The notes beneath the pieces were generated by a model. The model was not told where the DNA came from and ran no database searches. It saw only the letters and a program-made list of their open reading frames with translations. The position numbers and the translations under genes are program-made. 64,000 bases of DNA, taken from a virus. Shown here in pieces: positions 39,929 to 61,900 of the stretch. Location: IMG/VR virus record IMGVR_UViG_3300020392_000004; one strand, 5' to 3'. Within the stretch, counting starts at the first letter, position 1, and each line of letters starts with the position of its first letter.

Positions 39929-40618
39929 TTACTTTGTTAAATTGAATGTTTCGTCTAAATCAAACAAGTTCCAATCTTCATCTATTTGACCTACTTGGTG
40001 ATTTCTCTGATTACCTATGTGATTAGTATTAACATTAAATGAAATAGAGTATCTATCTTTATCAGTTCTATTAGGTTCAACCATATGCATCATGGCACTT
40101 GGAAACATAATTAAACTTCCTGTGACAGGTTTTACTGCATAACTTTCTATACACCTTGCATTTGGTGGGTAATCTGATACAACCTTTGGGTCTGTATTGA
40201 TAGCTAAAAATTGACCTTCGTCTCCTTCTGAATGTATATAAAAAGCTCCACTATACCAACAACCATTGTGTAAGTGAGGTCTATTCCATGCAAGGTGGTC
40301 GTTTATATTTGCCCATGAATTACCTATATCTATCTGAACTTTTCCTCTATCGATACCATGGAATCCTGCTATCTCATTATTTAATATGTCTTTTAAAACT
40401 CTCATCAACTTAATAAATGTAGGGTGATTTTCACAACCGTCATTTGATTGCCAACCAGTATAGGCATTTGATATCTGTCTTCCAACTGGGTCTTTTTTTC
40501 TCATACCATCTATTGCGTCCTTCAACATTCCACAATATTCACTTGTAATCCTACCACTCTCTACAAGGTTTTCCTCATAACAAATAGTTGGAAATAGTAA
40601 TCTAATCCCTTTCTTCAT
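39929..40618 (-). CDS. Putative 2OG-Fe(II) oxygenase (TIGR02466-like)
   Basis: LFPT, GWQS, WANIN, PHLH, SGAFYI, MFPS.MMH.VEPN, RYSISFN. Confidence 0.85.
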   Translation of the reverse strand: MKKGIRLLFPTICYEENLVESGRITSEYCGMLKDAIDGMRKKDPVGRQISNAYTGWQSNDGCENHPTFIKLMRVLKDILNNEIAGFHGIDRGKVQIDIGNSWANINDHLAWNRPHLHNGCWYSGAFYIHSEGDEGQFLAINTDPKVVSDYPPNARCIESYAVKPVTGSLIMFPSAMMHMVEPNRTDKDRYSISFNVNTNHIGNQRNHQVGQIDEDWNLFDLDETFNLTK

Positions 40619-41546
40619 GTCCGTCCCAGTTTAAGTCTGTCAAACTTCTTTGTTTCTCTTTGAAATCCATTTCTAATTGAACTTCTTCTTTCTTATGCAT
40701 AGGGCATTCGGGTGGAGGATTTTCACCTTCTGCATATAGATTAGCTTTATTAGTTTTAAATCCACCTTTTCTATAACCACCGATATTCAGTCTATCGTCA
40801 ACTGATTTATAAGCACCAGTTTCCATATCTATTAATCCTTGTTTCACTTGCCATTTTTGCATTGATTGTTCTGATATTCCATGGGTATTAAACCAGTCTT
40901 TAGATTCTCCATAAAAATAAGTTGATTTCCATTCGTCTCTTTTATAGGGAACTATTTGTAGTATAGGTGTTCCTTTCGGTATAATAAAAGAATGTTTTAC
41001 TTTAGGATAGAATATAATTTGTGCATTATCCATACCTAAATTAAAAGTATCTGTATCAATTATACCTTGCCATACTGCAAAATATTTATTTTGAAATAAG
41101 AATGGGTCTATGAAAAAAACTGAATAGCCTGGAGGTGTAGTTATGTTCCAAAAGTTTCCCATTTTAAATGCATCTTTTACAGGCCCTTCGTCACCCATAT
41201 ATTCAAATGAATCTTGGAACTGTGCAGCTGGGTGAGTTGGTGACGCTTGCATATTATCACTTCCGTCTAAATGAAATGGGCTAGTGGTCATTCTTTCACT
41301 TTCTTCTGGCCAATCCCAATCAAATCCATTCATAACAGGAATGTCACATGCAGTAATAATATACCAACCAGTTTTTAAATAATCGTCCATGGCTGGACAA
41401 GACCTAACAGTTTGAGCTCCCTCTCCTCTATGGTCAATTCTAATCTTTGCAGTTTTCCACCATTCAGGCATGTATGTTTTTGCAACAACAGGCTTGAATC
41501 TCTGAAAAGCTTCGGGATTATATGTTCTAAATTCAATTGTTGGCAT
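40602..41546 (-). CDS. Conserved marine-phage hypothetical protein (double-stranded beta-helix-like)
   Basis: PEWWK, TVRSCPAMDD, ITTPPGYS, GIIDTD, IPKGTPILQIVPYKR; a family commonly found next to phage oxygenases. Confidence 0.65.
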   Translation of the reverse strand: MPTIEFRTYNPEAFQRFKPVVAKTYMPEWWKTAKIRIDHRGEGAQTVRSCPAMDDYLKTGWYIITACDIPVMNGFDWDWPEESERMTTSPFHLDGSDNMQASPTHPAAQFQDSFEYMGDEGPVKDAFKMGNFWNITTPPGYSVFFIDPFLFQNKYFAVWQGIIDTDTFNLGMDNAQIIFYPKVKHSFIIPKGTPILQIVPYKRDEWKSTYFYGESKDWFNTHGISEQSMQKWQVKQGLIDMETGAYKSVDDRLNIGGYRKGGFKTNKANLYAEGENPPPECPMHKKEEVQLEMDFKEKQRSLTDLNWDGHEERD

Positions 41547-42270
41547 ATCTTTGGTGTTCGTCTAGTAAACGAACTTCGTCTCCTCTTAAAACAATAGACT
41601 TCCTATCTATATATCTTGCGTCTTTAGAGGGTGATTCTGCACCGTGTGGTATTCTTCCGTCAAACATTAAGAGACGATTCGGTTTGAATCCAACTCTTCC
41701 TATTTCATATCTATCCATGAGTTTTCTTGCACCCGTAGGGACATATCTGTCATAAAATCTTAAATCACCACCCCAGTTTTCATTCCAAAAAGTATTAGTG
41801 TAATATAAAAATGATAAATTATAATCGTCTTCCATACTACAATCAGAATGACAACTTCCGTCTAAACCGTGTGTTTGTGAGTTTGTTCCCATGTATTGAA
41901 ATCTTACCCACTCAAAAGCAAAATCAGTTCTAATCTTTCTATCAAACCAATACATTAAATGTGGAGTTCCATATTTGTGTGATTCACATTCTAATTTTAA
42001 GTATCTTCCGTCACCTGCTTCTCTTCCTCTGAAATATGAAGCTCCCCATAATTGGTGATTCGGTAAACCACCTCTACCACCGTCACCTTGAACTTCGTTA
42101 TGTTTTTGCCATGAGGTTCTTTGACTTAAAAAAAGGTCTACTGCTTGATGAAGTGAGGAATCTAGATAATTGTCTATAACATATACCTTATTACCAAGAG
42201 GCAACTCGGTTATATAAAAGGGAGAATCAATATCGATTCTTTCTATAGAGTTATAGGTTTTGCTCGGCAT
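41533..42270 (-). CDS. 2OG-Fe(II) oxygenase (prolyl hydroxylase-like)
   Basis: HSD, FLYY...W.ENWGGDL.F, PNRLLMFDG.IPH, R.SIV. Confidence 0.85.
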   Translation of the reverse strand: MPSKTYNSIERIDIDSPFYITELPLGNKVYVIDNYLDSSLHQAVDLFLSQRTSWQKHNEVQGDGGRGGLPNHQLWGASYFRGREAGDGRYLKLECESHKYGTPHLMYWFDRKIRTDFAFEWVRFQYMGTNSQTHGLDGSCHSDCSMEDDYNLSFLYYTNTFWNENWGGDLRFYDRYVPTGARKLMDRYEIGRVGFKPNRLLMFDGRIPHGAESPSKDARYIDRKSIVLRGDEVRLLDEHQRYANN

Positions 42271-42826
42271 TATATCCTCCGTCCTTCAAAGTTGAAGGTG
42301 TAGGTAAAGCCATTAGATAATCTTCGATAGGTTTTAGTGTATCTTCTCTAGTGACAGATATTTCTCTAAATAAACCGTCAAGAACATTGTTAACTGCATC
42401 TGCATATTCAAGAACCCTTCTTGCGTCTGACCTGTAAGGGTGAGCAGAACCTTCTCTTCCAGCATATACTGATTCAAAAAAATCATCAAAACCATGCTTT
42501 TGTGCATGTATATGTATATTTTCTCTTGCAGTTCTATTGATTTCACCAATATATTGATTGTTCAAATTTACACCGTGAGGTGGTTCGGAATTTGCAATAT
42601 ATTGTTCAATACTATCTCTTTCTGTTTCAGATAAAGGTAATGTTTCTTGTTGTTCTAGGGGTTTATCATCTTCCCATTTCAATACTTTGACTTCTATTTG
42701 GTCATATATTAAAACTTCAAAATCAAAACCTAAATCAGGTTTATCGACATTGTCAAATCTATATTCTAGTCCATTTGGTTTTCTAATTGTTAGATTCCCA
42801 AATTCACAATAAGTTAATGCATTCAT
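42251..42826 (-). CDS. Hypothetical protein, tail-fibre-assembly-like
   Basis: C-terminal AQKHGFDD...Y....HPYRSDA.......D.V...LP resembles phage fibre-assembly proteins; weak. Confidence 0.45.
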   Translation of the reverse strand: MNALTYCEFGNLTIRKPNGLEYRFDNVDKPDLGFDFEVLIYDQIEVKVLKWEDDKPLEQQETLPLSETERDSIEQYIANSEPPHGVNLNNQYIGEINRTARENIHIHAQKHGFDDFFESVYAGREGSAHPYRSDARRVLEYADAVNNVLDGLFREISVTREDTLKPIEDYLMALPTPSTLKDGGYNAEQNL

Positions 42827-42847
42827 AATAATCTCCAGTATATCACA

Positions 42848-44509
42848 CTAGTCTTTGTTTGGTAAGGTGCTTTTTACCTTATAGTATTGCTCCAACATAT
42901 TTATGTCTGAACAATCCATGTCTTTTATCCACGGCCCACCTCTTGTATAATGGACTGCATGGTGTGAATCAAGACACTCTGTTTCAAATCCCTCTGTTGC
43001 AATTTTCCCATGAGGTATTTTACTAATTTTATCTGTCCACTCAAACTGGTGTAAGTATTTACCAGTTGCAGTATTGACAACTTCGGGTGTTAACTTTTTA
43101 CAATCTTCATGTCCGTTATTAAATATCATCATACTAGACCATAATTTTTTAGGATATGATACATTTCTTTCTCCACCCATTTTAACTTCGTCATGGTGTT
43201 CAAAATCATACTGAACACATGCCACCGCATTGTCGGGGTCAAGGAAATAGAAAAATGGTAAAGGTGTTCTTTTCCATATGTAATCATTATCTATGAAGAT
43301 ACTAAATCCTTCATAGTTTTCAAGATATGGAATTAAAAATCTACTGTAAGTAAATTCAGTAGATTGATTTGCATAGTCTCTATTATAATCTTTTAATTTG
43401 CTAATGTCAAGTAATTTAACTTCTATTTTGTAATCATTGAAGTAATCTTCTCCGACTCCTCTACTTTTTGACTTTTCTATGCTATCATGTATTGACTTTT
43501 CACAAACTTCATGTATAATATTATCGTGAGAAGAATCATAACCAATGTATATGTTTAGAGGCTTCTTTTTACATAACAATGAAACCTTTTTATTGAAATC
43601 ATAAACATATTTTCTAAAATCTGTTCCCCCTCCCTGTTGTAAAGGAACACTAAATTCTATTTTTCTTTGGTCTGTATAAATTGCACTTACATTTTTAGAA
43701 TTTTCAGGGACTAGAGATAACCAATATGTTTTTAAATCTTCATATGATAAACTAGGGTGTCTTGGAAAACAATTTGCATAATCTGTGACTAGACAAGTAT
43801 TATCAGGATAATCCATAGATTGAAAAGACCTACTTCTCATTGAGCCTGGGTGTATAGATAAAGAATTTATACCGCCATGATTTCCTGTGTGTTGAGTTAG
43901 TCCTTGGATAGGTTGCCAGAGACCATTATTTTGTATGTCATTTATTAACCAGTGTGCTTTTGCAGCGTGATAAAACACAGATTGTATAGTATTTTCATGT
44001 TCTAATACCATTGATTCGTCCATGGAACCACCCATTAAATCAATATAATCTTGATTACCTTCTTGATAACCATACATTTTTGCAAATCTTTTTCTTTCTT
44101 CGTCTGTAATTTTTAAGGGTGTCGTTATGGTTTTATATTCTCCTTCCACTGTCATAAAATCCATGGAACCACCTTTTATTCCATGTCGAGGTCTACATTT
44201 TTCTGTCCAACCTTCATGTAAGAATTTTAAATATTGATAAGAATTATGGTCTAGTCCACCCCATGACATAATTTCTTTATTGTCCATTAAAGGTTTTATA
44301 TCTTTCCATGTGACTAATCTGATAGGAGGCATACATTCTTCTATGATATATTTCCAAACCTCTTCGGTTTCGTCTGTATCTCTTCTATGCTCTGGTATAG
44401 GGACTTGACCTAATTTCATTTGCCTAGTAGGCATATCTTCATAAGAAGTATAAGGTTTAAAAAACTGTTTTGCTTTTTCTAGGGTGTTGATTTCTTCAAA
44501 AGTATCCAT
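42848..44509 (-). CDS. Two-domain protein with C-terminal GT-A glycosyltransferase
   Basis: IYIGYDS, STEFTYSRFLIPYL, DND (DxD), YPKKLWSSMMIFN, HYTRGGPW; N-terminal ~310 aa unassigned. CTAAATA late-promoter variant at 44520-44526. Confidence 0.8.
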   Translation of the reverse strand: MDTFEEINTLEKAKQFFKPYTSYEDMPTRQMKLGQVPIPEHRRDTDETEEVWKYIIEECMPPIRLVTWKDIKPLMDNKEIMSWGGLDHNSYQYLKFLHEGWTEKCRPRHGIKGGSMDFMTVEGEYKTITTPLKITDEERKRFAKMYGYQEGNQDYIDLMGGSMDESMVLEHENTIQSVFYHAAKAHWLINDIQNNGLWQPIQGLTQHTGNHGGINSLSIHPGSMRSRSFQSMDYPDNTCLVTDYANCFPRHPSLSYEDLKTYWLSLVPENSKNVSAIYTDQRKIEFSVPLQQGGGTDFRKYVYDFNKKVSLLCKKKPLNIYIGYDSSHDNIIHEVCEKSIHDSIEKSKSRGVGEDYFNDYKIEVKLLDISKLKDYNRDYANQSTEFTYSRFLIPYLENYEGFSIFIDNDYIWKRTPLPFFYFLDPDNAVACVQYDFEHHDEVKMGGERNVSYPKKLWSSMMIFNNGHEDCKKLTPEVVNTATGKYLHQFEWTDKISKIPHGKIATEGFETECLDSHHAVHYTRGGPWIKDMDCSDINMLEQYYKVKSTLPNKD

Positions 44510-44536: not shown

Positions 44537-45433
44537 TTAACTAGAAATCGGAGTTCCAGGCCACTGTTGTTGTAATACACCGTCCCATCTTGGAACTGGT
44601 GTTCTTCCTTGTCTTGCGTAAGTGGTTGGATTCTGATTTGAATATGTAGTCGGTGTTTGACCCTGTCTAGCATAAGTCGAAGGACTTCTATGATTGTAAG
44701 TAAATGGTGTCTGACCTTGTCTTGCATAAGTTGTTGGGTTCTGATTTGCATAGGTAAAAGGAGTTCGTCCTGTTGCCTGATATGTTGAAGGTGACCTAAA
44801 GTTATATGTAAACGGTGTTTGACCTTGTCTCTCGTATGTTGACGGAGATTGATAATCATAAGTAGACGGTGTTTGACCCTGTCTTTCATAAGTTGAAGGA
44901 GACTGATAATCATATGTGAAAGGTGTTTGACCTGTTCTTTGATATGTTGAAGGTGACCTATAATCGTAAGTAGAAGGTTGCCTTGCGTCTCTTATGTTTG
45001 GTTCTTGTGCTGACCTAATGTTTGGTTCTTGTGCTGACCTAATGTTTGGTTCTTGAGCATTAGCAGGGTATGTAAATGGTTGTTGTCCTGACCTAATATT
45101 AGGCTCCTGTGCTGACACTGGGTTTCTGTAAGTGAAAGGTGACCTATGATGATATGTAAAAGGTTGTCTTGCTGGTGCTTGATATGTAAAGGGTGACCTA
45201 TAATGATATGTAAAAGGTTGTCTTGCTGGTGCCTGATAGGTGAATGGTGACCTATAATGATATGTAAATGGACTTCTAGCAGGTGCTTGATATGTAAACG
45301 GTGACCTATAGTTATAAGTGAATGGTTGTCTTGCACTTGCAATATATGGGTTTTGAGTTCCGTATGGGCTCTGATAACTTGCACCGACTGGTTGTCTTGC
45401 TTGAAATGTAAATGGACTCTGATAAAATGGCAT
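44537..45433 (-). CDS. Gln/Pro/Tyr/Thr-rich repeat protein (mirror partner of 45436-46947)
   Basis: 31 xxP-anchored units of 6-12 aa. Confidence 0.85.
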   Translation of the reverse strand: MPFYQSPFTFQARQPVGASYQSPYGTQNPYIASARQPFTYNYRSPFTYQAPARSPFTYHYRSPFTYQAPARQPFTYHYRSPFTYQAPARQPFTYHHRSPFTYRNPVSAQEPNIRSGQQPFTYPANAQEPNIRSAQEPNIRSAQEPNIRDARQPSTYDYRSPSTYQRTGQTPFTYDYQSPSTYERQGQTPSTYDYQSPSTYERQGQTPFTYNFRSPSTYQATGRTPFTYANQNPTTYARQGQTPFTYNHRSPSTYARQGQTPTTYSNQNPTTYARQGRTPVPRWDGVLQQQWPGTPISS

Positions 45434-46791
45434 AATTATCTCTTCTGCATGTTATGGACTACAAAGTCATTTGCAAAGAAGTTAGCATTATCACTTACAC
45501 GAGTCAAGTGATAGACCTCATGTTCTCCTTCCAGTTTGTTAATATTTGATATTTTTGCAGTTGATTGATTGTTTAAAATCAATGATAATGAATCTACAAG
45601 AATATCCCCCTCTTCAATTAGGCCAGAGATTTCTCCACCCCAAGCTGCACCCATGGCAACTTCTTTTTCCCAATCTTCCATGTTTATGACACACCAACCT
45701 TTATCTTGAATCAACATTGGGTGTCCACCAGTCACACCAGTAATCTTACCGTTGACTTCTATATCATATAATTCACATACTCTAGGTTGCATAATTTCTT
45801 CGACCACTCCAACTTCTAGTGTATCTCCTAGTGTCATGACTGACATACCAATCTCTATAGACTCGATAGGTCTGTATGTATTGTCTCCCATCCATATCAT
45901 AGTTCCCATTGCGAAACAACCGTGTCCAGTAGGTAAGCCTGGTGAACCACCGCCTGGGTAGTAAACTGGTTGTCTTGCTTGACCGATATATGGACTCTGA
46001 TATGAGAACGGAACTGGTTGTCTTGCACTGCCCGGCTGTCGTGCATGATAGGTAAATGGGTTTTGAGCAGACCTAATGTTTGGTTGCTGAATATTCGCAG
46101 GATATGTAATTGGTTGTTGAGCAGACCTAATGTTTGGTTGCTGAATATTCGCAGGATATGTAAATGGATTCTGTCCATTCCTGATATTCGGTTGTTGAAT
46201 ATTTGCTGGATATGTAAATGGATTCTGTCCATTCCTGATATTAGGCTCCTGTGCTGACACTGGGTTTCTGTATGTAAACGGTGACCTATAGTTATATGTA
46301 AATGGACTCCTTGCTGATGCTTGATAAGTGAACGGAGACCTGTAGTTATATGTAAACGGTGACCTATGATTGTATGTAAAAGGTGACCTATGGTCGTATG
46401 TGAACGGATTCTGTCTGTTCCTTATATTCGGTTCCTGTGCATTTGCAATGTAAGGATATGGCTGTTGTGCATTTCTGATATTAGGTTCCTGTGCATTTGC
46501 CTGATAAGGATAAGGAGTTTGTTTATTCCTTATGTTTGGTTCTTGAGCATTTGCAATGTAAGGATATGGTTGTTGTGCGTCCCTAATGTTTGGTTCCTGT
46601 GCATTTGCAATATACGGATAAGGTTGTTGTGCATTTGCAATATAAGGTGACCCACCGTTTGCAATATAAGGATAAGGTTGTTGTGCGTCTCTTATATTTG
46701 GTTCTTGAGCATTTGCAATGTATGGATATGGATTCTGTGCATTTGCAATGTATGGAGAACCACCCTGTGCAATATATGGGTAAGGTTGTTG
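44606..46791 (-). repeat. Two coding arrays of degenerate 24/30-bp units (44606-45421 and 45976-46791)
   Basis: Tandem units such as tgctgacctaatgtttggttctt; includes an identical 35-bp direct repeat at 45096-45130 and 46238-46272. Confidence 0.9.
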
Positions 46792-46947
46792 TGTTGCCTC
46801 TTGACCTGAAGCATTATTCCACCCGCCTGGAGCTTTGATATAAATTTGGTCAACTGCTTTCCAAGTAGACGGGCCTGTCTTGACCCATGCACCTTGAGTT
46901 GCATTCCAACCTGATGGGGTTTTAACTTTCTGTGAACCTGACGCCAT
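45436..46947 (-). CDS. Fibre-associated Gln/Pro/Tyr repeat protein with C-terminal HINT (intein-like) domain
   Basis: Trp-rich N-terminus (WVKTG..TWKAVDQIYIK..GGW), 31 repeat units, then CFAMGTMI...TGGHP...NFFANDFVVHN. Confidence 0.88.
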   Translation of the reverse strand: MASGSQKVKTPSGWNATQGAWVKTGPSTWKAVDQIYIKAPGGWNNASGQEATQQPYPYIAQGGSPYIANAQNPYPYIANAQEPNIRDAQQPYPYIANGGSPYIANAQQPYPYIANAQEPNIRDAQQPYPYIANAQEPNIRNKQTPYPYQANAQEPNIRNAQQPYPYIANAQEPNIRNRQNPFTYDHRSPFTYNHRSPFTYNYRSPFTYQASARSPFTYNYRSPFTYRNPVSAQEPNIRNGQNPFTYPANIQQPNIRNGQNPFTYPANIQQPNIRSAQQPITYPANIQQPNIRSAQNPFTYHARQPGSARQPVPFSYQSPYIGQARQPVYYPGGGSPGLPTGHGCFAMGTMIWMGDNTYRPIESIEIGMSVMTLGDTLEVGVVEEIMQPRVCELYDIEVNGKITGVTGGHPMLIQDKGWCVINMEDWEKEVAMGAAWGGEISGLIEEGDILVDSLSLILNNQSTAKISNINKLEGEHEVYHLTRVSDNANFFANDFVVHNMQKR

Positions 46948-46973: not shown

Positions 46974-49031
46974 TTAGGAGTATAGAATCCATAAATCACC
47001 AACTGCTCCGTCTGAACCCGTAGGTGCAGAAGTTGACTGATAAATGTTTCTTGCAGTTCCACCGTTATTTGTTGCATTCGTAATTGTGACTGCACCAGTA
47101 TTAACTGCACTTGGTGTAATTGTTAAATTACCTGTAGATGCACCTGTAAATGAACCTGTTCCAAATGTGATTGCATCTGCACTTTCGTCCCAACCAATAA
47201 ACACATTGTCTGAACTTCCTCTCTCAATGACTAAACCTGCGTCATTTGAAGGTGAACCTGATGTTCCATTTCCTAATTCTATCAATGCATCTGATATTGT
47301 TGTGTTGGTTGAACTAACTGTTGAAGTTGTTCCGTTAACTGTTAAGTTTCCTGAAAGTGTTAAGTTTCCAAATTGAACATTACTGTTTGTTGCAACTGCC
47401 TGACCGATACTAACTTCACCTGAACTGATTGAAACACCAGTTCCACCACTGATATGAGCTCTTACTTCTGAAGCACTTGGGCCAGTATATGTAATTACAC
47501 CTGTAGAGTTATTATATGCTAATCCACCGTCTCCACCTGAATCTGTGACCGATATCGCTTGTCTTGCATTTGCATCTGCATATTGTGTTATTGAAGTTGC
47601 AACTGTTAAAGTATTACTTGCATCGTCATATGTTGTTGTGATACCTGTTCCTTCTTGTATCAATGCATTTACTCTATCGTCAACTCTTTCGTTTGTAAAA
47701 TATAAATTAGAAGAACCTTCTGATAATGCATCTGTATTTGCAAGAACTGAACCACCCAATGAAGTTGCAGAACCACCAATTGTTATACTGGAGTTTGCTA
47801 ACATTGAATTTAAAATTACACCTGAACCGATTGAAAAGTCTAAAGTTCCGTCTCCGTCTTCGTATGTGACTGCAATACCAGTTTCAGTATTAGATGATAC
47901 CATTCCACCAACAATATCTTGAACTCTTTCAGTAGTCATATAGAGATTACTTGACCCTTCTCCGATATCGTCTGTATCTAATGTAAGTGTATTTCCTAAT
48001 GCAACTGTGTTTGAATTTAATGTAATTGAACTATTTGCAAGTTTTGCGTTTGCAATTGAACCAGCAAGTTTATCGTTTGCAATTGAACCTGCTAACATGG
48101 CATTTGTTATACCACTTGCTTTTACTTGAACTGTATCAGAATCTATCTCTAAAGAACTATCATCTACTTGAACATTAAGTGTGACATCTCCTGATGTTCC
48201 ACCACCTGTTAGACCATTACCAGCAACTACTGATTCTATGTCACCAGCGTCATTTGTAAATGATATAACACCAGTTGAACTATTGTATGATAAGTCACCA
48301 CTAGCACTGATTGCACTTCTTGCTCTTGCATTTGTAAAATATTGATTTGTTGAACCTTCTGTTAGTGAATCTGTGTTCTCTGCACCACCGAGTATAACTG
48401 AATTACCCATTCCACTGTGGTTTGAACAATAGAAATACATAGGGTTATTTGATTCTTGGTCAAATGCAACTTCTGTATATGAACCACTTGAGCCTGGAGT
48501 TCCTACTTTATTATAAATTGAATAACCGTCTGTCATTTCTGAACCGTCTGCTGATTCAGAGAATCTTAATGGGTGTGAAGCGTTTGAACTATCTGACTGG
48601 TCAAATCTATAAACTACATTTGGAGTTAGTCTTAAAGGTTGTGAGGACGATTGACCGTCAAATGCATACTTATTACCACCGTCACTTATAACTGTGACAA
48701 CTACTCTATGATAATAAGGTGCAGTAGTATTGTTTAGTTGTTGTTCTACATCTAGTGTGACGGTTCCACTGGTTCCACCACCATCTAGGTTTGTTCCAGC
48801 TGTGACTCCTGTTATATCTCCAACTTGACCGTTGATAGTAAGAGTTCCAGCAGAATCATCATATGATAATGATACTCCTGTTCCAGCTGTTAGTAAAGAA
48901 TTTACTTGGTCGTCTATCTTTTCTAGGGCTGCAGTTCCGAATGCAGCTGCAGTTAAATCACCTGAACTGTCTAATACTTCGGTATCCCCTACGGATAGAC
49001 CATTTTTAATTTTAAAGTTTACATCTGCCAT
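46974..49031 (-). CDS. Tail fibre protein with cupredoxin-like insert
   Basis: TD.L.EGS.N.YFT..R repeats, GNLTVNGT, YRFDQSD...HP...YCSNHSGMG, C-terminal SAPTG....GDLW. Confidence 0.8.
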   Translation of the reverse strand: MADVNFKIKNGLSVGDTEVLDSSGDLTAAAFGTAALEKIDDQVNSLLTAGTGVSLSYDDSAGTLTINGQVGDITGVTAGTNLDGGGTSGTVTLDVEQQLNNTTAPYYHRVVVTVISDGGNKYAFDGQSSSQPLRLTPNVVYRFDQSDSSNASHPLRFSESADGSEMTDGYSIYNKVGTPGSSGSYTEVAFDQESNNPMYFYCSNHSGMGNSVILGGAENTDSLTEGSTNQYFTNARARSAISASGDLSYNSSTGVISFTNDAGDIESVVAGNGLTGGGTSGDVTLNVQVDDSSLEIDSDTVQVKASGITNAMLAGSIANDKLAGSIANAKLANSSITLNSNTVALGNTLTLDTDDIGEGSSNLYMTTERVQDIVGGMVSSNTETGIAVTYEDGDGTLDFSIGSGVILNSMLANSSITIGGSATSLGGSVLANTDALSEGSSNLYFTNERVDDRVNALIQEGTGITTTYDDASNTLTVATSITQYADANARQAISVTDSGGDGGLAYNNSTGVITYTGPSASEVRAHISGGTGVSISSGEVSIGQAVATNSNVQFGNLTLSGNLTVNGTTSTVSSTNTTISDALIELGNGTSGSPSNDAGLVIERGSSDNVFIGWDESADAITFGTGSFTGASTGNLTITPSAVNTGAVTITNATNNGGTARNIYQSTSAPTGSDGAVGDLWILYS

Positions 49032-52823: not shown

Positions 52824-54419
52824 TTATCCCTCGCCAGAGATATATGGTGTTTGTCCACCGTCACCTTCACTTCCTTTTTGGAATTGTGCGTTTGGAACTG
52901 CTTGGTGTATCTTTTCTATACCTTGAGGTGCATGGACATATACCTCTTGTGCTTTTGCAACTACACCTTGGTTATTTACAAAGACACCTTTTACTTTTGC
53001 AACAGCTCCAACTGGTCTAGTTGTAGTGTATGGTTGTCTAGCAATATACGGAGAACTGTAAATATACGGTTGTGGTTGTTGGTGTATATAAGGAAATGGT
53101 TGTCTTCCTGTTGCACTACTCGTGACTTGTTGAGTTCTCTGAACAGAATATTGAGAAGGTGATTGATAATCATATGTAAAAGGACTTCTTGCATCTGCAA
53201 TATAAGGATATGGATTTTGTTTATCTCTTATATTAGGTTGTTGTATAGAAGCAGGATTATTATAAATCGAAGGTGATTGATAATCATATGTAAATGGTGT
53301 TTGACCTGTTCTTTGATATTCAGAAGGTGACTGATAATCATATGTGCTTGGTTGTTGGTATTGATATATTACTGGTTGTCTTGCATCCTTAATAGTTGGT
53401 TGTTGTCCCTGTCTTGCCTCTGCATATGGTGAGTTATATTCATATGTGCTTGGTGACCTATTTGGTTGTCGAGAAATATAAGGTTGTTGTGTTTCGAATG
53501 TTGGTGTTCTCCCCTGTCGAGAATATGTAAATGGTGACTGTGTCTGTGCTTGTGCTTGGCCTGGGATTTGGTAAGCGTGGTCTTCCCCTGAAAAGGGGTT
53601 AAAATAAAATGTTGTATTTTGAGCCTGTGTAATATATGGAACAGGTTGACCACCATTTGCAATATACGGATACGGATTTTGTGTCGATATTGCTTGAAAG
53701 GAACTTGGAGACCGTTTACTAGCATTTGGGATAGATGTTTGATATTGATATATGGCAAAGCCTGGAGAATCATCATCAAAGAAACGCCCTGGCGCCTGTG
53801 GAAACGGAGAAGATTGATAAGTTCCGAGATTCGGTTGTTGGTGTTGGTATATAACAGGATTTTGAACATTATGTGGTTGTGATACTCCCGCCTGTGCAAT
53901 TGGTCTCTGTGCATTAAAAGAAGATTGAACACTTGTTTGTTTGTTTCTAATTACTGGTTGTGTAAATTGTCCAATATAAGGAAATGGTGATTGATAATCA
54001 TATGTAAAAGGACTCTGTTTACTTACATCTTGTTTAGTAGTTTGTTTATTTCTTATATTCGGCTCTTGTGCGCTTGCAATATATGGATATGGTTGTTGTG
54101 CGCTTCTTATAAAAGGGTTCTGTCCTTGAGTTGAATTCTGATATGTAAACGGAGACTGATAATCATATGTGCTTGGTTGTTGACCCTGTCTTGCATATGT
54201 AAAAGGTTGTTGTGCGTCCTTAATAGTTGGTTGTTGATTCTGTGCTTGGTGGACATAGAAAGCAGGACTTTGGTAAATGAAAGGATATGGTTGTTGTCCT
54301 TGTCTATTTACTGAAACCTGTGTTATTCTTTGTGTTGTTTCAAAAGCTTGATATGCAACTTGACCCTGATAGGGTTGTTGGATTTGTGTCCCTTGATTTA
54401 TGTATATTTCATCAGCCAT
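52824..54419 (-). CDS. Gln/Pro/Tyr-rich repeat protein with internal mirror symmetry
   Basis: Same unit vocabulary (QEPNIRNK, QQPYPYIASA, QSPFTYDY, QSPSEYQRTG) as 44537-46947. Confidence 0.85.
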   Translation of the reverse strand: MADEIYINQGTQIQQPYQGQVAYQAFETTQRITQVSVNRQGQQPYPFIYQSPAFYVHQAQNQQPTIKDAQQPFTYARQGQQPSTYDYQSPFTYQNSTQGQNPFIRSAQQPYPYIASAQEPNIRNKQTTKQDVSKQSPFTYDYQSPFPYIGQFTQPVIRNKQTSVQSSFNAQRPIAQAGVSQPHNVQNPVIYQHQQPNLGTYQSSPFPQAPGRFFDDDSPGFAIYQYQTSIPNASKRSPSSFQAISTQNPYPYIANGGQPVPYITQAQNTTFYFNPFSGEDHAYQIPGQAQAQTQSPFTYSRQGRTPTFETQQPYISRQPNRSPSTYEYNSPYAEARQGQQPTIKDARQPVIYQYQQPSTYDYQSPSEYQRTGQTPFTYDYQSPSIYNNPASIQQPNIRDKQNPYPYIADARSPFTYDYQSPSQYSVQRTQQVTSSATGRQPFPYIHQQPQPYIYSSPYIARQPYTTTRPVGAVAKVKGVFVNNQGVVAKAQEVYVHAPQGIEKIHQAVPNAQFQKGSEGDGGQTPYISGEG

Positions 54420-54420
54420 A

Positions 54421-55719
54421 TCATGTCACAAACCATAAGTGACCGACACTAGTTGACCCAACACCTGTCGGTGCAGAAGACACTACCTCATAATCTAATT
54501 CGACATCGTCACCATCGATTTTCACTCCGTTAGATGTATTTACACTGAATGAACCTGAACCACTTAATGCAAGTCCAGCTCCACCACTTAAGTATGATTG
54601 AACATCTGAATCACCATATTGTGCAGAACCATTTATAGTTAGGGTATTATTTGCATCGTTATATGACAAAGATATACCTGTTCCACCGATTAAACCTTCA
54701 CCACCTGTAGTAGTTCCTGATAGATAATCTAATACTCTCTCTCCTGTAAAATAGAGATTAGTTCCACCCTCTGTGACTGTATCCGAGGTTTGTTGATTAG
54801 TTGGAACATATTTACTTGAAGAAGAATTATATACTAATATCTGTCCGTCTGTTGGTGAAGTAGTATCAACATCACTTAAATCTGTTATTTGGTGATTTGT
54901 AATACTTGATACTGTTCCAGTCAATGCACCTGTTGAGGCGTCTAATACAACTGAACCACCATGTTTAACATCACCAGTAATATCACCAGTGACATTACCT
55001 GTTAAATTACCAACCAATGCACTAGAAGTTATAGAACTAAATCCTGTTCCCACTCCACCTGTTATTGTTGCAGTTCCGTCTGTTATAGAAGGTGATTCAA
55101 AAGTATGTCCTGTATCGATTTTAACATCACCATTAATGAAAGTATTACCTTCATTTTGAATTTGATATCCTGATTGTAATGAAGTGGCTGCAGTTAGAGT
55201 TCCATTTAGAATTACTCCTGCTGAATTAGTATTGTAGATTGTGTTCGAAGCAGTCTCGGTAAACTTACCTCCACCGCCACCACCGTCAGCAGCGACTCCA
55301 CTTTCAGAACCAGTGTATGAATATATTGTTATGACATCATTAGCACTTGTTGCAGCGTTTATTAGTAATCCACTATTAAAAACATCACCAGAGCTTATTG
55401 CAGAAAAACCTGCTGTTCCTGACCCACCCTCGATTAGGTGATTACCATTTAAGTAAACTTGTATTTTACCTTGTCTATATTTTAAAACATTTCCATTTTG
55501 GTCTGGCCCTGAAAAAGTCACCTGGCCTGCGGTTGCAACATATTCAAATTGTTGAAAGAAGAATGTTTTATCTTCGATTACATTTATTGCATCTACTATA
55601 GTATTTGGACTTTTTAATGAGCCTCTTAAACCTGTAAGGCTCCCCACTTCATTTACAAGTGTGTTGTATGAACCTCTAAATTCATTTAGAGTTTGATTTT
55701 CATTTATTGTATTAGCCAT
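54421..55719 (-). CDS. Tail fibre protein
   Basis: TLNEFR..YN N-terminus, VYLNG domain, GNLTGNVTG, LSDVD...DGQILVYN, C-terminal SAPTG....GHLWFV. Confidence 0.75.
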   Translation of the reverse strand: MANTINENQTLNEFRGSYNTLVNEVGSLTGLRGSLKSPNTIVDAINVIEDKTFFFQQFEYVATAGQVTFSGPDQNGNVLKYRQGKIQVYLNGNHLIEGGSGTAGFSAISSGDVFNSGLLINAATSANDVITIYSYTGSESGVAADGGGGGGKFTETASNTIYNTNSAGVILNGTLTAATSLQSGYQIQNEGNTFINGDVKIDTGHTFESPSITDGTATITGGVGTGFSSITSSALVGNLTGNVTGDITGDVKHGGSVVLDASTGALTGTVSSITNHQITDLSDVDTTSPTDGQILVYNSSSSKYVPTNQQTSDTVTEGGTNLYFTGERVLDYLSGTTTGGEGLIGGTGISLSYNDANNTLTINGSAQYGDSDVQSYLSGGAGLALSGSGSFSVNTSNGVKIDGDDVELDYEVVSSAPTGVGSTSVGHLWFVT

Positions 55720-55921
55720 GTGTTTTCTCTATAAGTTCCTTCAATAAACCTTTTATATCACTCAATTCATCTTTTAGATTATTTATGTCTTCTCTCTGAT
55801 TTCTCATAATTTGTCTTCTTCTCATTGTAAGACGATATTGTTCAACATCAGTATTAATGATTGCATGAGACTCTTCGTCTCTAACTAAATGTGAATGTCC
55901 TTCTACTTTTAAATCTGCCAT
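55712..55921 (-). CDS. Conserved hypothetical T4-like phage protein
   Basis: KVEGHSHLVRD..S.AIINTD plus C-terminal coiled coil. Confidence 0.75.
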   Translation of the reverse strand: MADLKVEGHSHLVRDEESHAIINTDVEQYRLTMRRRQIMRNQREDINNLKDELSDIKGLLKELIEKTHG

Positions 55922-58900
55922 TATGCTAATGCCATGACTCTCAATGCAGATACCATTGGAACTACACTAGAGTTTTGACCTTGTCCTACAATTTTAATTA
56001 TGAAAGAAGAGAACTCTGGCAAGTCATTTACGGTATATTCATATTCCTTAAAGTTTCTTGCATCATTCTCAACTGCACTATCGGGTGAACCATCTGTATT
56101 AAAGAATTCAAATCCTATATCGTCAAGTGGTGTTTGTTCGTCACTCTTGACAATTTTAAACATATACTTCAATTCAGTTGTCGGTGGTCTAAAGTTATCT
56201 GCAATCACCTTGAGTGAAGTAGCTGGATTTTTAAGGTTTACCTTTCTTGTCACATAGATAAATGCATTTTGGTCACCTTCGGGTTCTGTTGAAGGTATAT
56301 GTGTAATATCTGATGGTAATGACACCGTCACTCCGTCAACTTTCTTACCACTTTGATTATCTATGTTATTAATTCTATTTGATATTGCAATACAACCAAT
56401 CGTTCCAACATCTATCACTGGTGATACATTTGGATTTCTTGACAACATTTGAGTTATCAATCTGAATGACCTTTGTGATTGCATTTTATTTGTTTCGTTA
56501 ACCACTGAAGCAACTATGCCTGGAGCGTCTAGGAATGTATTATCATTCAGTGTTATAAAGTTGTTTGTTGTTCTTCTATTGTAAACTGTATCTCCTGAAC
56601 TTATGAATCCTTCTGGCGATTTCATTGCAGTTGTATTGATACTTGATACTACTTTACAACTTCCAACTTGTGTAGAAGGTATCATAGTATGTAATGAATC
56701 AAAGATATAGTTTCTAGATACTTGGACTGATGAACCACCACCTGTTGTTGTTTCTAATGCAGTATAACCACTTACAAATTTACTTTTATCTATAAAACTA
56801 GTTAGATTACATGCAACATTGAATGAATCAATACCTATATTTGCAACACCATTAGTTGAGGAGTCTCCAAATGTTGTATTGATTGCAGCGACTGGGATAC
56901 CTCCTAGTGTATCACCGATTGCCACCACTGTGATTGTTAAGTCTGCTGTTCCACCGTCAAAGTTATCGAATGTGACTGTATTACCGACTGCATATCCTTG
57001 GCCTGGATTTACAATTCTTATACCATTTGTTGTCCCTATTGCACCACTTGCTATCTCTACATTTATTATCATACCTGTTCCACTTCCATCTGTGGAATCA
57101 GCAGTTTGTGCGTTATGATTACCGTCACTTGGTGTCTCTGATAAACTTGGACTTCCTACTTCTAATACAGAACCTACTCTATCTCCGACTACTCCTGATA
57201 TTTGAACATTTGAACTTTCGTCATATAATCCATGATTGTATGCAGAAACTTTCACATTATTACTACTTACAGTTGTTAATAATGGATTTTTTCCTAATGT
57301 ATCTAATTCAAGGTCTTTATTTTCAAAATGTATAGCAGGAATTTTAGTAGTATCAAACTTACATATCTTCATAGTAAATTTCATATCATCTGTTTGTTCT
57401 GCTGTCCATGTTGAAGCATTCTGTGATAAGAATAATGAACCTGCGTATGGTTGACCTGATATCTGTTGTCCTGAAGCTAAATCAGTTTCACCCATTCTTG
57501 ATATCCATTGTTCATATTCATTTGAGTTTGAGTAAACAATCAATGCATATTCTTTCTTCTCTTCAACATAAACTGGTGATTCGAATGAGAATGTTGTTGC
57601 AACTGTTCCGTCAGCAGATATATTAACATCACTTGGATTCTTTGTGACTGTTGAGAAAGGTAATACTATTTGGCCTGGATATCCATTTACCATGTTTCTA
57701 ATTTCAACTGAAACTGGCATGTGTGTATCTTTTGCTTGGAAGAATACATCTACGGAAGATATAAACATTCCTCCACTTGCCTCACATAAGAATGATTGTG
57801 CAAGTGGGTCACCCCAACCTCTTTCTAACCTAGAACCAATTCTAAATTCTAATTCAGGTGGTAAAGGTGGAACTGGTATTGCTGGTGGTTCTGGCACCTC
57901 TATTGGGAATACAATTACTGGGTCTGCCACAATAGGTTCAGGTATCGGTATAGTATCGACTGGAATATCGGGTGCAATCGTATCGGTTGGAGATATGTTT
58001 AATCTTTCACCTCTTCTTTGTATCTGTCTCTCACCCTCTGTTAATTGTGATATAACTCTTCCATTCCTTGTTGAAACAATTTCTGTTTGTGAACTTGACA
58101 ATAATCCTTGAGCTTGGTATACTGCTGAACCTGAACTTGGTGGATTAGATAAGTTATGGAATGAAGAGGTTAACTTTAATTCTCTTTGTCCTGTAGGGAA
58201 TCTTTGAGTTTCAGTATTTGGTAATTCAAAGAACCCTCTCAATCTTCCATTACCGTCTGATTTAAGATTTGAAGAGACTGTAGTTCCACCGTCCTGTGAA
58301 TATGCAGTTGATTGTGGTCTCACAAACTTATCTACTCTGATTCCGTCAAAGAAGAAGTAATGGTTTGTATTTGGTTTTAAGTTTGTTGCATCTATCTCAA
58401 TAGTTCTTGCCCTCATGAAAGGGATAATTGCAACTGATACTATTCTATCGTTTCTTGTTTCTACAAAATCTTCTACAACACTTGTAGTGATACCTGTTCT
58501 AGTTTGTATCTCGGGTGACTCTGTAATTTCTCTAGTGACTTCTTGACCCGCTTGCCATTCACCACCTTGAGCTGGGTCACCTGACCATGAACCTGCTGTA
58601 GTTGATTGAACTTCTGATTCAACTGATGAAGGTTCTCCAACCCATGTTGTTTGCCATGAGTTCCAAACTGTTCCTAAAGAGTTTCCAACTCCTGACATAA
58701 CAGCGTCAAAGTTTCCTTCTCTATTAACTCTAACATCGGGTAATCTTTCTGTATCGTTCCATATGTCGGTGCCTGGCGTTAATTTAACATTACCGATAAA
58801 TGCAAAGACATGATATGGGTTAACATTAATATGTCTTGAAGCTTTATCTTGATTAATATAATTTACTTCTGTAAATGGTAGAGTAATCAAGTCACCAGTC

Positions 58901-61900
58901 TGTTGATAGTTCGTTGAATTTGTTGTATCTAAATTCAAATCAAAGAACTGTTGCATATTTTGAGGTCTTAACATACCCATTTTTGTATCGATAGAACATT
59001 TATAATCGGGGTGGTTAACATCACCAATCTTATGTCCTCTAAAGTTATCGACCAAGAATCCTGACTTGAATCTATCGAATCCGTCTGCATCTAATACCTG
59101 TGCAGATTGTGTATCTTTTTCTAATAGAGATAGGGAAGTGACTCTTTCTAGGTTTGTGACTCTTTTATTAATACGACCTATGTCTTTCATGGTGTATCGT
59201 CTATGGTCAAAACTTCTAACTTTAATCTCTGATAATTTTTTTGTAAATGCTGGTATGAACAATTCAAACATTTCTATTGAATCGTCAATTGCTTTAGGTC
59301 TAGTTGGTGATAATGACGGGATACCTGTTGATATTTCAAATAGTCCGTCTTTACCAAGATAGATTCTATCTATTCTAGAAGTATAGAATTCTATATCTCC
59401 AACTGTTGCACCACCCTTCATAGGTGTGTCTAAAGCAGCTGCACCTGCTCCTGTAAATACTTTGTTTTCATATTTGAATGGGTCACCACTTAATCCACTT
59501 GATATGTTTGCTGGACTACTTGGGTCGGGATTTGCAGAAGAGAAGTTTGCATCTGAAAATAATTGTGCAACTGTTGGTCTATAATCGACTGCATCTGATA
59601 GTTCGTATTCACCATCAGGTTCTAATCCACCCATATCTATTCTGTTCGGTGAGTAAACTGGTATTTCTTTATAGTCTAAACCTGCGTCTGTATATGAATT
59701 TACATCATAAAACTCTCCACCATTTGAAGTGAAGTTATCGAAGACTATGAGAATTGAATTGTTTGGTGTAGGTTCACCAGGCTTCAGTGTAATTTTTGCA
59801 ATATCATAGAAACCATCTCTCTGACCATTGTCAAAGAAATATCTTTGTGTGATATTATCTGACCCTGTTGTTATTAGGTCTATATCTGCAGCTGCATTTG
59901 TTATTTGACCTACACATGTTTCTCCGTCTGTAAAGACAAAGTCATTTAAGTAATAGAAAAATGTTGACCCTGAATTTGCATATTTAACAATTCTTGCTTG
60001 GGCACCTGATGTTTGACCTATGATTACTTCGTCTTTTACAAAGTCTGTTCCTGTATAAGAAGCACCACCTAATCTTCCACTTGGAGGTAAAGGTGTAGAA
60101 CCACCGATACCTTCATAGACTGCTCTAACTGATAATACATCTGCAACACCTAATGTTATGTCTTTGTTATCATAACATGTTCCGTAATCTGAAGCACCTG
60201 CTACAAATGCAGTATCTACTATTGCACAACGAGACCTATTTAATACTTTGTTTCTATGTTCAGGTGAATCGTCAATAACTGTAAATGATACTAGATATTT
60301 TACTCCGTCTGAAGCAGTAGTATCGAACTGAATCGATTGACCACCACCACCGAGGTTAGATGCAGTTGGAGGTGAACTTGCAAAATCTATCTCTGCACCT
60401 AATACATTTCCTCCACCTGTATTACCGTCAGTATTTAAAATTGATAACTGGAAATTATCTCTATCTACTGTAGAGAAGGTTTCACCTGCTCCAGTTGTGA
60501 TTGTGACCTTACCACCTGAAGCTGCAATCACTTTTTGTCTTCTTATTGATATTCTATCAGGTGTATGTTTTTTTACATAATCTCTTGGCCATGCATATAT
60601 TGCTACTGCTTGGTCTTGGTCAAATAGTTTGACTCTCCTTCTTGTTGCAGAAGGGTTGACATCAAATGCTGTGACACTACTTGTTGCAACTGTTTGAGCT
60701 GTGACTGAATCTGTGACGGTAGAAATTACTTGTTCGTCACCATTACCATCGATAATGATATCACCCTCTTTAAGTTCAGCAGTAAATCTTGTTCCAAAAC
60801 CAGTGATATTACCATTGGCTGCAATTGATACACTTCCTGTTAATGTGTTATCACCGTCTGCAACTGCATCTGCTGTAAAGTCTGCATCACCTGAACCACT
60901 TCTTTCTTGTCCTATACCTCTAACTCTGTCTATGTTAAATGTTCTAACTTGGTTTGCAATACCTCTAAAGTTTTCTCCGACTACAGTGAATGTTGCAGTT
61001 CCGTCACCTTCTGATGTAATTGTCTCACCATGCACGAATGTTCCTACAACATCATGAACATACATATTTACACCGTTGACATGACCTACGATACCTGTTG
61101 CACCTGATGTTCCACCGATAACTCTATCACCAACATTTGAATTTGATATTGAGCTACCAGCTTTTAATTTAGTGAACATTTTTATATCAAAGAGATATAA
61201 ACCTGTGTTATCGTTTGTGGCTCCAAAGTTGTCTATATGTCTAACTCTTGCAAAACCAATATGGTCTTCACTGTTTAGTGTTCCTGCTACTGCTGTGATA
61301 CTTGGGAATAATTTACATATTGCATATGGTGTGATTGCACTTGCACCACTCTCATTACCAAAATCGGGAAACCCAAAACCATTTTTGACTTTTATGAATT
61401 GTCCTAATCTTGTTGGAGTATTTGCAGTATTTAATGTGACTGTTTGTCTTGCTTTGTTTATGTTTAGATTGGAAGTTCCAATTTTATCTATCTCATATCC
61501 CTTAACATATGCCTTTCCTGGCGATACTTGGAATACAAATTTTTCTTCTTTACCACCTTGTGCTTTGAGATAGAATCCTCTGTTTGTTGAATCGTCTAAA
61601 TGTTCTCTTAAACTATGTGTAAACTGATTGACTATGAAATCACCGTTTGCATCGAAAGTTCTTCGTGCAAGAGTGTTTTCAATCTCTGTATACATAGGTC
61701 GATTAGTATGAAGTTCAATCTGACCTTTGTTAACTCTAACTAACTCTATGAAGTTTGCATCTTCTGTGGAAGTTAAATCATATTTGGAAAGAGTTAATGT
61801 AAACTTGAGTCTATCAGCACCAGCTGCATTTTCATTTGAAGTTCCCTGTGCATTATCATAGAGAGAACTATCTTCTGCAACTGATATTAATTCTTCTTTT

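Follow-up and report, generated by a model that had tools for sequence, protein, structure and literature searches.

Mirror-image repeat arrays in two adjacent genes of a marine T4-like virus: a candidate antiparallel zipper fibre

Introduction

The needle of the bacteriophage T4 fibre protein gp37 is reportedly six-stranded (Bartual et al. 2010). It lies between the two segments that make up D10, namely residues 811–881 and 1010–1026 (PMC6957217). Its strands run to the tip and back in antiparallel segments, with the distal tip at the turn. A comparable course is proposed here for the products of two adjacent genes, called A and B, from the IMG/VR virus record IMGVR_UViG_3300020392_000004, of which a stretch of 64,000 nucleotides (hereafter the window) has been analysed. 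Both genes encode long repeat arrays whose unit lengths are exact mirror images of each other, and the two proteins probably pair as antiparallel strands of one fibre shaft. In gp37, each hairpin is formed by a single chain, the needle is about 15 nm long and is held by seven iron ions on histidine motifs, and there is no code of unit lengths or unit types, whereas the A/B hairpin would be split over two genes, each arm having as many as 540 residues. Sequence similarity to gp37 is absent, the A array and B have no Pfam or PHROG match, and neither array contains an HxH motif.

Fold-back over tens of nanometres is also a property of the SMC/Rad50-type arms, in which N- and C-terminal segments come together with lengths and interruptions matched at mirrored positions. 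Antiparallel coiled-coil arms of the SMC type are the topic of a published study (PMC4345284). Such arms are α-helical, based on heptads, intramolecular and devoid of a discrete complementary alphabet, whereas the A/B arrays appear to be of the β type, with a dyad period, and are distributed over two chains. In the stalk of streptococcal antigen I/II, an alanine-rich helix and a proline-rich polyproline-II helix are reported to pair in an antiparallel manner and to present a tip domain (Larson et al. 2010). The likeness to A/B lies in the use of two different repeat arrays, antiparallel to each other, in a long stalk with a tip domain. However, antigen I/II combines an α helix with a polyproline-II helix in one chain and uses one fixed unit length, whereas the A/B units have even lengths of 6–12 residues, unfit for the polyproline-II period of three. 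In the tandem β-zipper, fibronectin-binding repeats add antiparallel β strands onto F1 modules in reverse order. The term is found in PMC3105298. Here again, an ordered array of motifs in one protein is laid in reverse order on an ordered array in another. In contrast to A/B, it involves a disordered peptide on folded host modules of 45 residues and a handful of units, with no length matching and with partners that are not co-encoded. None of these four systems is homologous to A/B, and none has two co-encoded chains with a length-matched complementary alphabet. No description of such a pairing-code fibre was found in the papers searched, and we regard the proposed A/B zipper as a new kind of protein architecture.

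Mirror-Image Arrays in Genes A and B

Genes A (45436..46947, 503 residues) and B (44537..45433, 298 residues) lie end to end on the minus strand, the ATG of B being found 2 nucleotides past the stop codon of A. Each protein carries an array of 31 units and 272 residues, at residues 53–324 of A (45976..46791) and 5–276 of B (44606..45421), with units of 6, 8, 10 or 12 residues. The arrays were parsed by rule, the anchor prolines being set 6, 8 or 10 residues apart and picked by dynamic programming. In this parse, A read from N to C and B read from C to N give one and the same interval series. The chance of such an exact series is about 1e-10 under a first-order Markov grammar derived from the remaining family arrays, and about 1e-8 under a second-order one. 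The sequence-only reading of the window, from which this work started, had announced this exact mirror, and the independent parse confirms it. The sole difference concerns a 12-residue unit, which becomes 6+6 and leaves the symmetry unaffected. The pairs of facing unit types listed in that reading also hold without exception, for example Q[EQ]PNIRxx facing xxP[FS]TYx[YHF], or QxPYPYxAxx facing xxP[ST]TYx[RA]xG.

The same reading had stated that the DNA is not an inverted repeat, and this was borne out. When the two arrays are compared on opposite strands, no inverted repeat is seen and only chance matches of 8–9 nucleotides appear (E ≥ 2), and the antisense translation of A bears no resemblance to B. 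Comparison of the array DNA on the same strand gives 128 high-scoring segment pairs between A and B. These repeats are direct only, with a period of 54 nucleotides. A DNA palindrome or an antisense-coding origin, considered as a candidate source of the mirror, is ruled out by these strand comparisons and by the antisense translation.

The arrays are framed by non-repeat segments, all encoded on the minus strand. Protein A begins with a tryptophan-rich base domain (residues 1–52, 46792..46947) in which many columns are invariant among 43 homologues, including W14, W21, W29 and W43. Beyond its array come the last anchor and a glycine-rich linker, ending Gly-Cys at the junction with the next domain (residues 325–342, 45922..45975), and then a Hint (bacterial-intein-like) autoprocessing domain of 161 residues at the array tip, identified by Pfam and profile matches (residues 343–503, 45439..45921). 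Protein B is simpler, with a head of 4 residues before the array and a conserved C-terminal tail of 22 residues behind it (residues 277–298, 44540..44605), whose invariant columns are R282, W283, D284, W291 and P292. In the antiparallel register, this tail would adjoin the N-terminal domain of A.

Gene A has 410 metagenomic homologues at E ≤ 0.001, and those with a source name are all labelled hypothetical protein. In the GenBank phage collection, blastn and tblastn searches with A and B detected no relative beyond intein and low-complexity matches, and none of the cultured phages of this collection carries the A/B pair. No usable neighbour of B was found in the ESM Atlas.

Conservation of the Mirror among Homologous Pairs

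A scan of IMG/VR yielded 80 loci with adjacent A-like and B-like genes, among which 57 pairs and 46 architectures are distinct. The arrays of this family contain 23–70 units and about 200–540 residues, and their length varies 2.7-fold between lineages. The sequence-only reading had proposed to ask whether unit gains or losses in one gene are matched at the mirrored position of the other, and the mirror is indeed kept among these pairs of different unit number and order. This can be seen without any parse, by counting the B prolines that land on A prolines after reflection: the median fraction is 0.89 in cognate pairs vs. 0.36 in non-cognate ones, and values of at least 0.85 are reached by 41/57 cognate pairs but by only 34/3176 non-cognate pairs. 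The best parallel alignment is always much worse than the best antiparallel one.

The parsed series agree with this. In 22 of the 46 architectures, the start of A reproduces reversed B without any edit, and in 32 it does so with at most three; the median number of edits is 2 in the antiparallel comparison vs. 15 in the parallel one. Many of the leftover edits are parse slips at substituted anchor prolines, or come from a B start missed by the open reading frame caller, as in locus L011. In that locus (L011:5431-5750), the B frame is open for about 100 codons upstream of its first ATG and includes a Val-Pro-Ile-Gly head, to be compared with Met-Pro-Ile-Gly in related B proteins. This B gene probably starts at a non-ATG codon, and the 13 seemingly unpaired A units are probably paired after all. 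Shifts of register along the arrays were followed with an offset walker; since its first, greedy version produced periodic +18 aliases, only offset changes that do not return to the origin were counted. In nearly all pairs, the origin of the mirror keeps a fixed distance to the A N-domain and the B C-terminus, with an offset of lenB+34 or +35.

Changes over short evolutionary distances are also informative. The closest relative of the window pair, L001, is 91% identical in A and 90% in B over aligned columns. It has three units fewer and several local differences, each of them mirrored in the partner gene. A tree based on a conserved neighbouring gene contains six sister pairs in which A and B have both changed and the mirror is kept, and three near-identical sister pairs in which the change is confined to one of the two genes. 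In near-identical contigs that differ by one block of 18–80 residues in a single gene (L021 vs. L022; L049 vs. L058; L014 vs. L032; L020; L034), the mirror is broken beyond the block.

Complementary Types of Facing Units

Equality of length is not the only relation between facing units. Unit types were counted over 1365 facing pairs. The 8-residue units of the PxI[RK] type face PxxY 8-residue units in 336 cases, and those of the PYIA type face PxxY units in 291 cases, so that all the classified 8-residue pairs (627/627) are heterotypic and none is homotypic within the named classes. Among the 10-residue units, PYPY faces an RxG-ending unit 274 times, and neither PYPY nor RxG is ever found opposite its own type. 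Among the 6-residue units, an aromatic unit faces a small one in 378 pairs and another aromatic one in 47. The pairing rule is the same whichever chain holds which type. At the residue level, mutual information within the PxI[RK]:PxxY pairs reveals significant couplings, with z up to 27, which do not follow a single anti-diagonal and do not fix the physical register.

The same alphabet is found within a single protein. A relative of 531 residues, encoded elsewhere in the window (52824..54419, minus strand), has an N-terminal and a C-terminal arm on either side of a central non-repeat domain of about 160 residues; read in opposite directions, these arms comply with the rules of length and type that hold for A and B. 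Its homologues L082 and L083 display 13–15 consecutive complementary unit pairs, and the family counts about 280 metagenomic homologues, with loci L081–L109. The unit alphabet would serve here in cis, as a hairpin stalk, which supports a direct arm-to-arm pairing. Between the N-terminal domain of A and the C-terminal domain of the 531-residue protein there is only a weak match, with 8/26 identities and E = 0.022 for a single comparison.

Conformation of the Arrays

All unit lengths are even, and 5166/5199 array prolines are of one parity. Over about 33,000 array positions, 99% of the tyrosines and 99% of the phenylalanines occupy the parity opposite to that of proline, together with most alanine, valine, histidine and glutamate residues. 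Besides proline itself, the proline parity holds isoleucine (95%), aspartate and most threonine, glutamine and arginine residues. Because this two-residue phase is unbroken over hundreds of residues, the arrays are expected to form extended β strands. Such a dyad periodicity argues for uninterrupted strands and is a poor fit to solenoids, which need a turn per unit, or to polyproline-II, with its period of three. A collagen-like or polyproline-II repeat fibre was considered separately and rejected: the units have 6, 8, 10 or 12 residues, the residue classes segregate with a period of two and no multiple-of-three periodicity is seen.

In a β sheet, every second residue of a strand directs its NH and CO groups towards one side. 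With prolines of one parity in both chains, the outside of a two-stranded ribbon would be lined by these residues, which would there cost no hydrogen bond and would prevent further strands from joining at its sides. With a rise of about 0.33 nm per residue, such a ribbon would span about 90 nm in the present case and about 65–180 nm in the family.

Structure predictions bring little to this picture. The prediction of a complex between A(1–342) and B, run with a 43-row alignment for each chain and without controls, gave an ipSAE (interface score) of 0.00, which counts neither for nor against the pairing. For the single-chain relative of the window, AlphaFold2 with 39 rows led to a mean pLDDT (predicted per-residue confidence) of 40, with values of about 31 in the arrays. 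Only the strands 13–38 and 445–470, which are the segments paired by the mirror register, reach a pLDDT of 50–70 in this model, whose output came without contacts. The mean pLDDT is 32 for the L082 relative, too low for the model to be of use.

Proposed Architecture and Alternatives

It is quite probable that an elongated fibre shaft of the virion is built from A and B, two strands paired in register and running in opposite directions. Both arrays would adopt an extended β conformation, with unit i of A set against unit n+1–i of B, and the register would be determined by two rules, the equal even length and the complementary type of the facing units. Aromatic PxTY-type units would face small or polar units of the PxI[RK], PYIA or PVxA types, and 10-residue PYPY units would face RxG-ending ones. 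The N-domain of A and the tail of B would meet at the base, presumably docked either on the virion or on the fibre encoded upstream (see below). The C-terminus of A and the N-terminus of B would form the distal tip, carrying lineage-specific modules; the module is a Hint domain in the present case, which would be cut off at Gly-Cys. To be conserved at the proximal end and variable at the distal one is usual for phage fibres; the proposed shaft would depart from this in having a second chain that returns from the tip to the base. The sequence-only reading had further suggested that the two chains zip into a two-stranded β-ribbon of up to roughly 90 nm, with a register set by a complementary code under selection at the protein level. 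The antiparallel pairing and the selected code are strongly supported by covariation, by the sister pairs and by type complementarity, whereas the ribbon of about 90 nm and the 1:1 stoichiometry are not supported by any model.

Several points weigh against this arrangement of A and B. The contact between the arrays and their presence in the virion are both predictions from sequence, and no ribbon of two strands with such a length and without a conventional hydrophobic core is known to us. The low-complexity arrays could be partly disordered until they are assembled or modified, and it might in principle be a third partner that recognises their complementarity. In addition, 5/57 pairs contain one unmatched block of 18–80 residues (L014, L020, L022, L034 and L058). 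If real, these blocks imply that mismatches are tolerated, at least transiently. They are all found at tree tips, and may be either assembly errors in the 54-nucleotide tandem repeats or short-lived variants that lack compensation.

Almost all phage fibres are trimeric, and antiparallel A:B pairs might likewise be gathered into a higher-order bundle, for example three ribbons on a threefold axis, making a six-stranded needle like the T4 gp37 tip. The gp37 needle is indeed made of chains running out and back (PMC6957217), and the strand face of A and B that is rich in tyrosine, phenylalanine and histidine could pack between ribbons. However, the prolines at every second position of one edge should block hydrogen bonds to a further strand, which leaves packing through the faces only, and the HxH metal-binding motifs are missing; such a bundle is somewhat unlikely, although the isolated two-stranded ribbon has no better claim. 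A shorter object, of about 15 nm, is obtained if the two chains build a cross-β or solenoid-like stack, with each facing unit pair as a rung perpendicular to the axis. Units of 10+8 residues would give the 18-residue coil length of β-rolls and left-handed β-helices, and equal facing lengths would keep the rung width constant. Yet a turn per unit should break the two-residue phase, whereas parity is kept over hundreds of residues; moreover, units of 6 residues cannot accommodate a strand and a turn, and runs such as 8,8,8 and 6,6 are incompatible with any constant coil length. We hold this stack to be improbable.

The two remaining explanations do without contact between A and B. Each protein could lie along a third periodic partner, in opposite orientations, and this partner would impose the matched order of units; it might for example be the upstream trimeric fibre, whose gene is adjacent in 56/56 loci. 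A common template would nevertheless select the same types at facing positions, not strictly complementary ones, and the single-chain relative appears to pair its own arms. The arrays also vary 2.7-fold in length with no sign of the upstream gene varying in step, although no detailed test of this was made, and we give this explanation very little credence. Even harder to believe is that the mirror is a by-product of mutation, through an inverted duplication with antisense coding, or an artefact of metagenome assembly. Tandem repeats of 54 nucleotides are certainly prone to slippage and hard to assemble, and between some near-identical contigs the difference is limited to one of the two genes. 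However, inverted DNA similarity is absent, antisense A is unrelated to B, and slippage or assembly errors would destroy rather than create a mirror between directly oriented genes. The mirror also recurs in 46 architectures from many independent samples.

Returning to the antiparallel pairing of A and B in one shaft, a stronger version of it can be put forward, tentatively and with slightly more doubt than belief. It would be a true combinatorial pairing code, in which a small alphabet of even-length β units, each accepting only its complement, gives a unique antiparallel register to two separately encoded chains of 200–540 residues over about 65–180 nm, and works both in cis and in trans, with a tip thioester that may, in the Hint-bearing lineages, do more than hydrolyse.

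Variable Tip and Hint Domain

Length variation and additional modules are all located at the end opposite to the A N-domain and the B C-terminus. The C-terminal end of A is of three kinds: a stop after a glycine-rich stretch, a Hint domain (14/57 pairs) or a variable domain of about 150 residues. The homologues of A devoid of a Hint domain end shortly past the equivalent glycine-rich stretch. The tip domains of about 150 residues have no Pfam match. Their lineages possess an extra gene of about 95–100 codons between A and B (L026, L027, L040, L041, L043–L045, L052, L055, L064, L065, L075 and L013), which may encode a tip-specific assembly factor.

The Hint domain of the window protein starts at Cys343, preceded by glycine, and the Cys-Phe dipeptide is invariant in all 14 Hint-bearing homologues. 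The T..HP block and the terminal HN are conserved in the alignment. A profile built from 8 homologues matches PDB entry 2LWY, the solved structure of a bacterial intein-like domain, with E = 2.8e-13 and DnaB inteins with E = 1e-9, and PF14890 is matched by 8/8 members of the profile, with a best E of 9e-13. The window copy alone gives Intein_splicing, Vint and Hom_end_hint matches that fall under the curated cut-off (24.5–29 vs. 35.8 bits). A canonical splicing intein was considered and rejected: Cys, Ser or Thr is not found at position +1, the HN being followed by Met, Arg, Phe, Gly, Tyr or Ile, then by 4–30 residues and the stop. Because the +1 nucleophile is missing, self-cleavage rather than splicing is expected, and it would take place at the Gly-Cys junction.

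This domain shares with the bacterial-intein-like (BIL)/Hint domains the same Cys1, the T..H block, the terminal His-Asn, the context of a variable surface-type protein and the lack of a +1 nucleophile. It differs from them by its location at the predicted tip of a two-chain zipper, and by its presence in only 14/57 homologues. In the Hint-bearing lineages, the tip thioester may do more than hydrolyse, for example by sealing the tip.

Genomic Context

The source genome is that of an uncultured marine T4-like myovirus. Genes for portal, sheath, terminase, scaffold and major capsid proteins can be recognised in the window, and the major capsid protein is 65–67% identical to those of Methylophilales phage Melnitz and of the Pelagibacter phages HTVC008M and Mosig. 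Genes A and B sit between tail-fibre-like and baseplate-like genes. Their putative role as virion fibre genes is suggested by this position in the tail-fibre region and by the conserved synteny.

Directly 5' of gene A, a fibre-like gene of 685 codons (46974..49031, minus strand), with PHROG structural and tail-fibre matches, is found in 56/56 distinct related loci. A second fibre-like gene (54421–55719, minus strand) stands directly before the single-chain zipper gene, and the two fibre-like proteins share a similar C-terminal motif, SAPTG followed after a few residues by G-[DH]-LW. This motif is possibly a docking site for the zipper base. An open reading frame of 2219 codons (55921–62580, minus strand), upstream of the fibre and zipper modules, matches PHROG 358 and 877, both of them families of unknown function.

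Downstream of B, a conserved block on the minus strand (39929..44509), recognised from synteny and from the Pfam families PF13640 and PF13759, encodes in this order a 553-residue protein, a 191-residue protein, a 2-oxoglutarate-Fe(II) oxygenase (245 residues), a 314-residue protein and a second 2-oxoglutarate-Fe(II) oxygenase (229 residues). The C-terminal half of the 553-residue protein is glycosyltransferase-like, and its homologues are annotated as glycosyltransferases in phages Mosig, S-SCSM2R and CcrColossus. Synteny of the downstream block is observed in 56/56, 53/56 and 44/56 loci, these counts being bounded by the flank fetched, and the gene order of fibre gene, A, B and downstream block is kept as far as the fetched flanks extend. 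The oxygenases and the glycosyltransferase-like protein are possible candidates for the tailoring or assembly of arrays rich in proline, threonine, asparagine and tyrosine. In this context, hydroxylation or glycosylation of the arrays may be envisaged as a reasonable idea.

Concluding Remarks

If the pairing of A and B is physical, it would be the first known natural case in which the register of β chains is set by a discrete complementary unit code, and thus a protein analogue of strand complementarity. Protein designers would then have at their disposal an alphabet tested by evolution, for programmable, rigid, heteromeric rods of defined length. The mirror also raises an evolutionary question, namely how two slippage-prone genes keep their insertions and deletions compensated. 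For the viruses themselves, A and B would represent a fibre module, widespread but lacking annotation, in marine T4-like phages that are relatives of the Pelagibacter and OM43 myophages. With its conserved base, length-variable shaft and swappable tips, this module would be a likely determinant of host contact.

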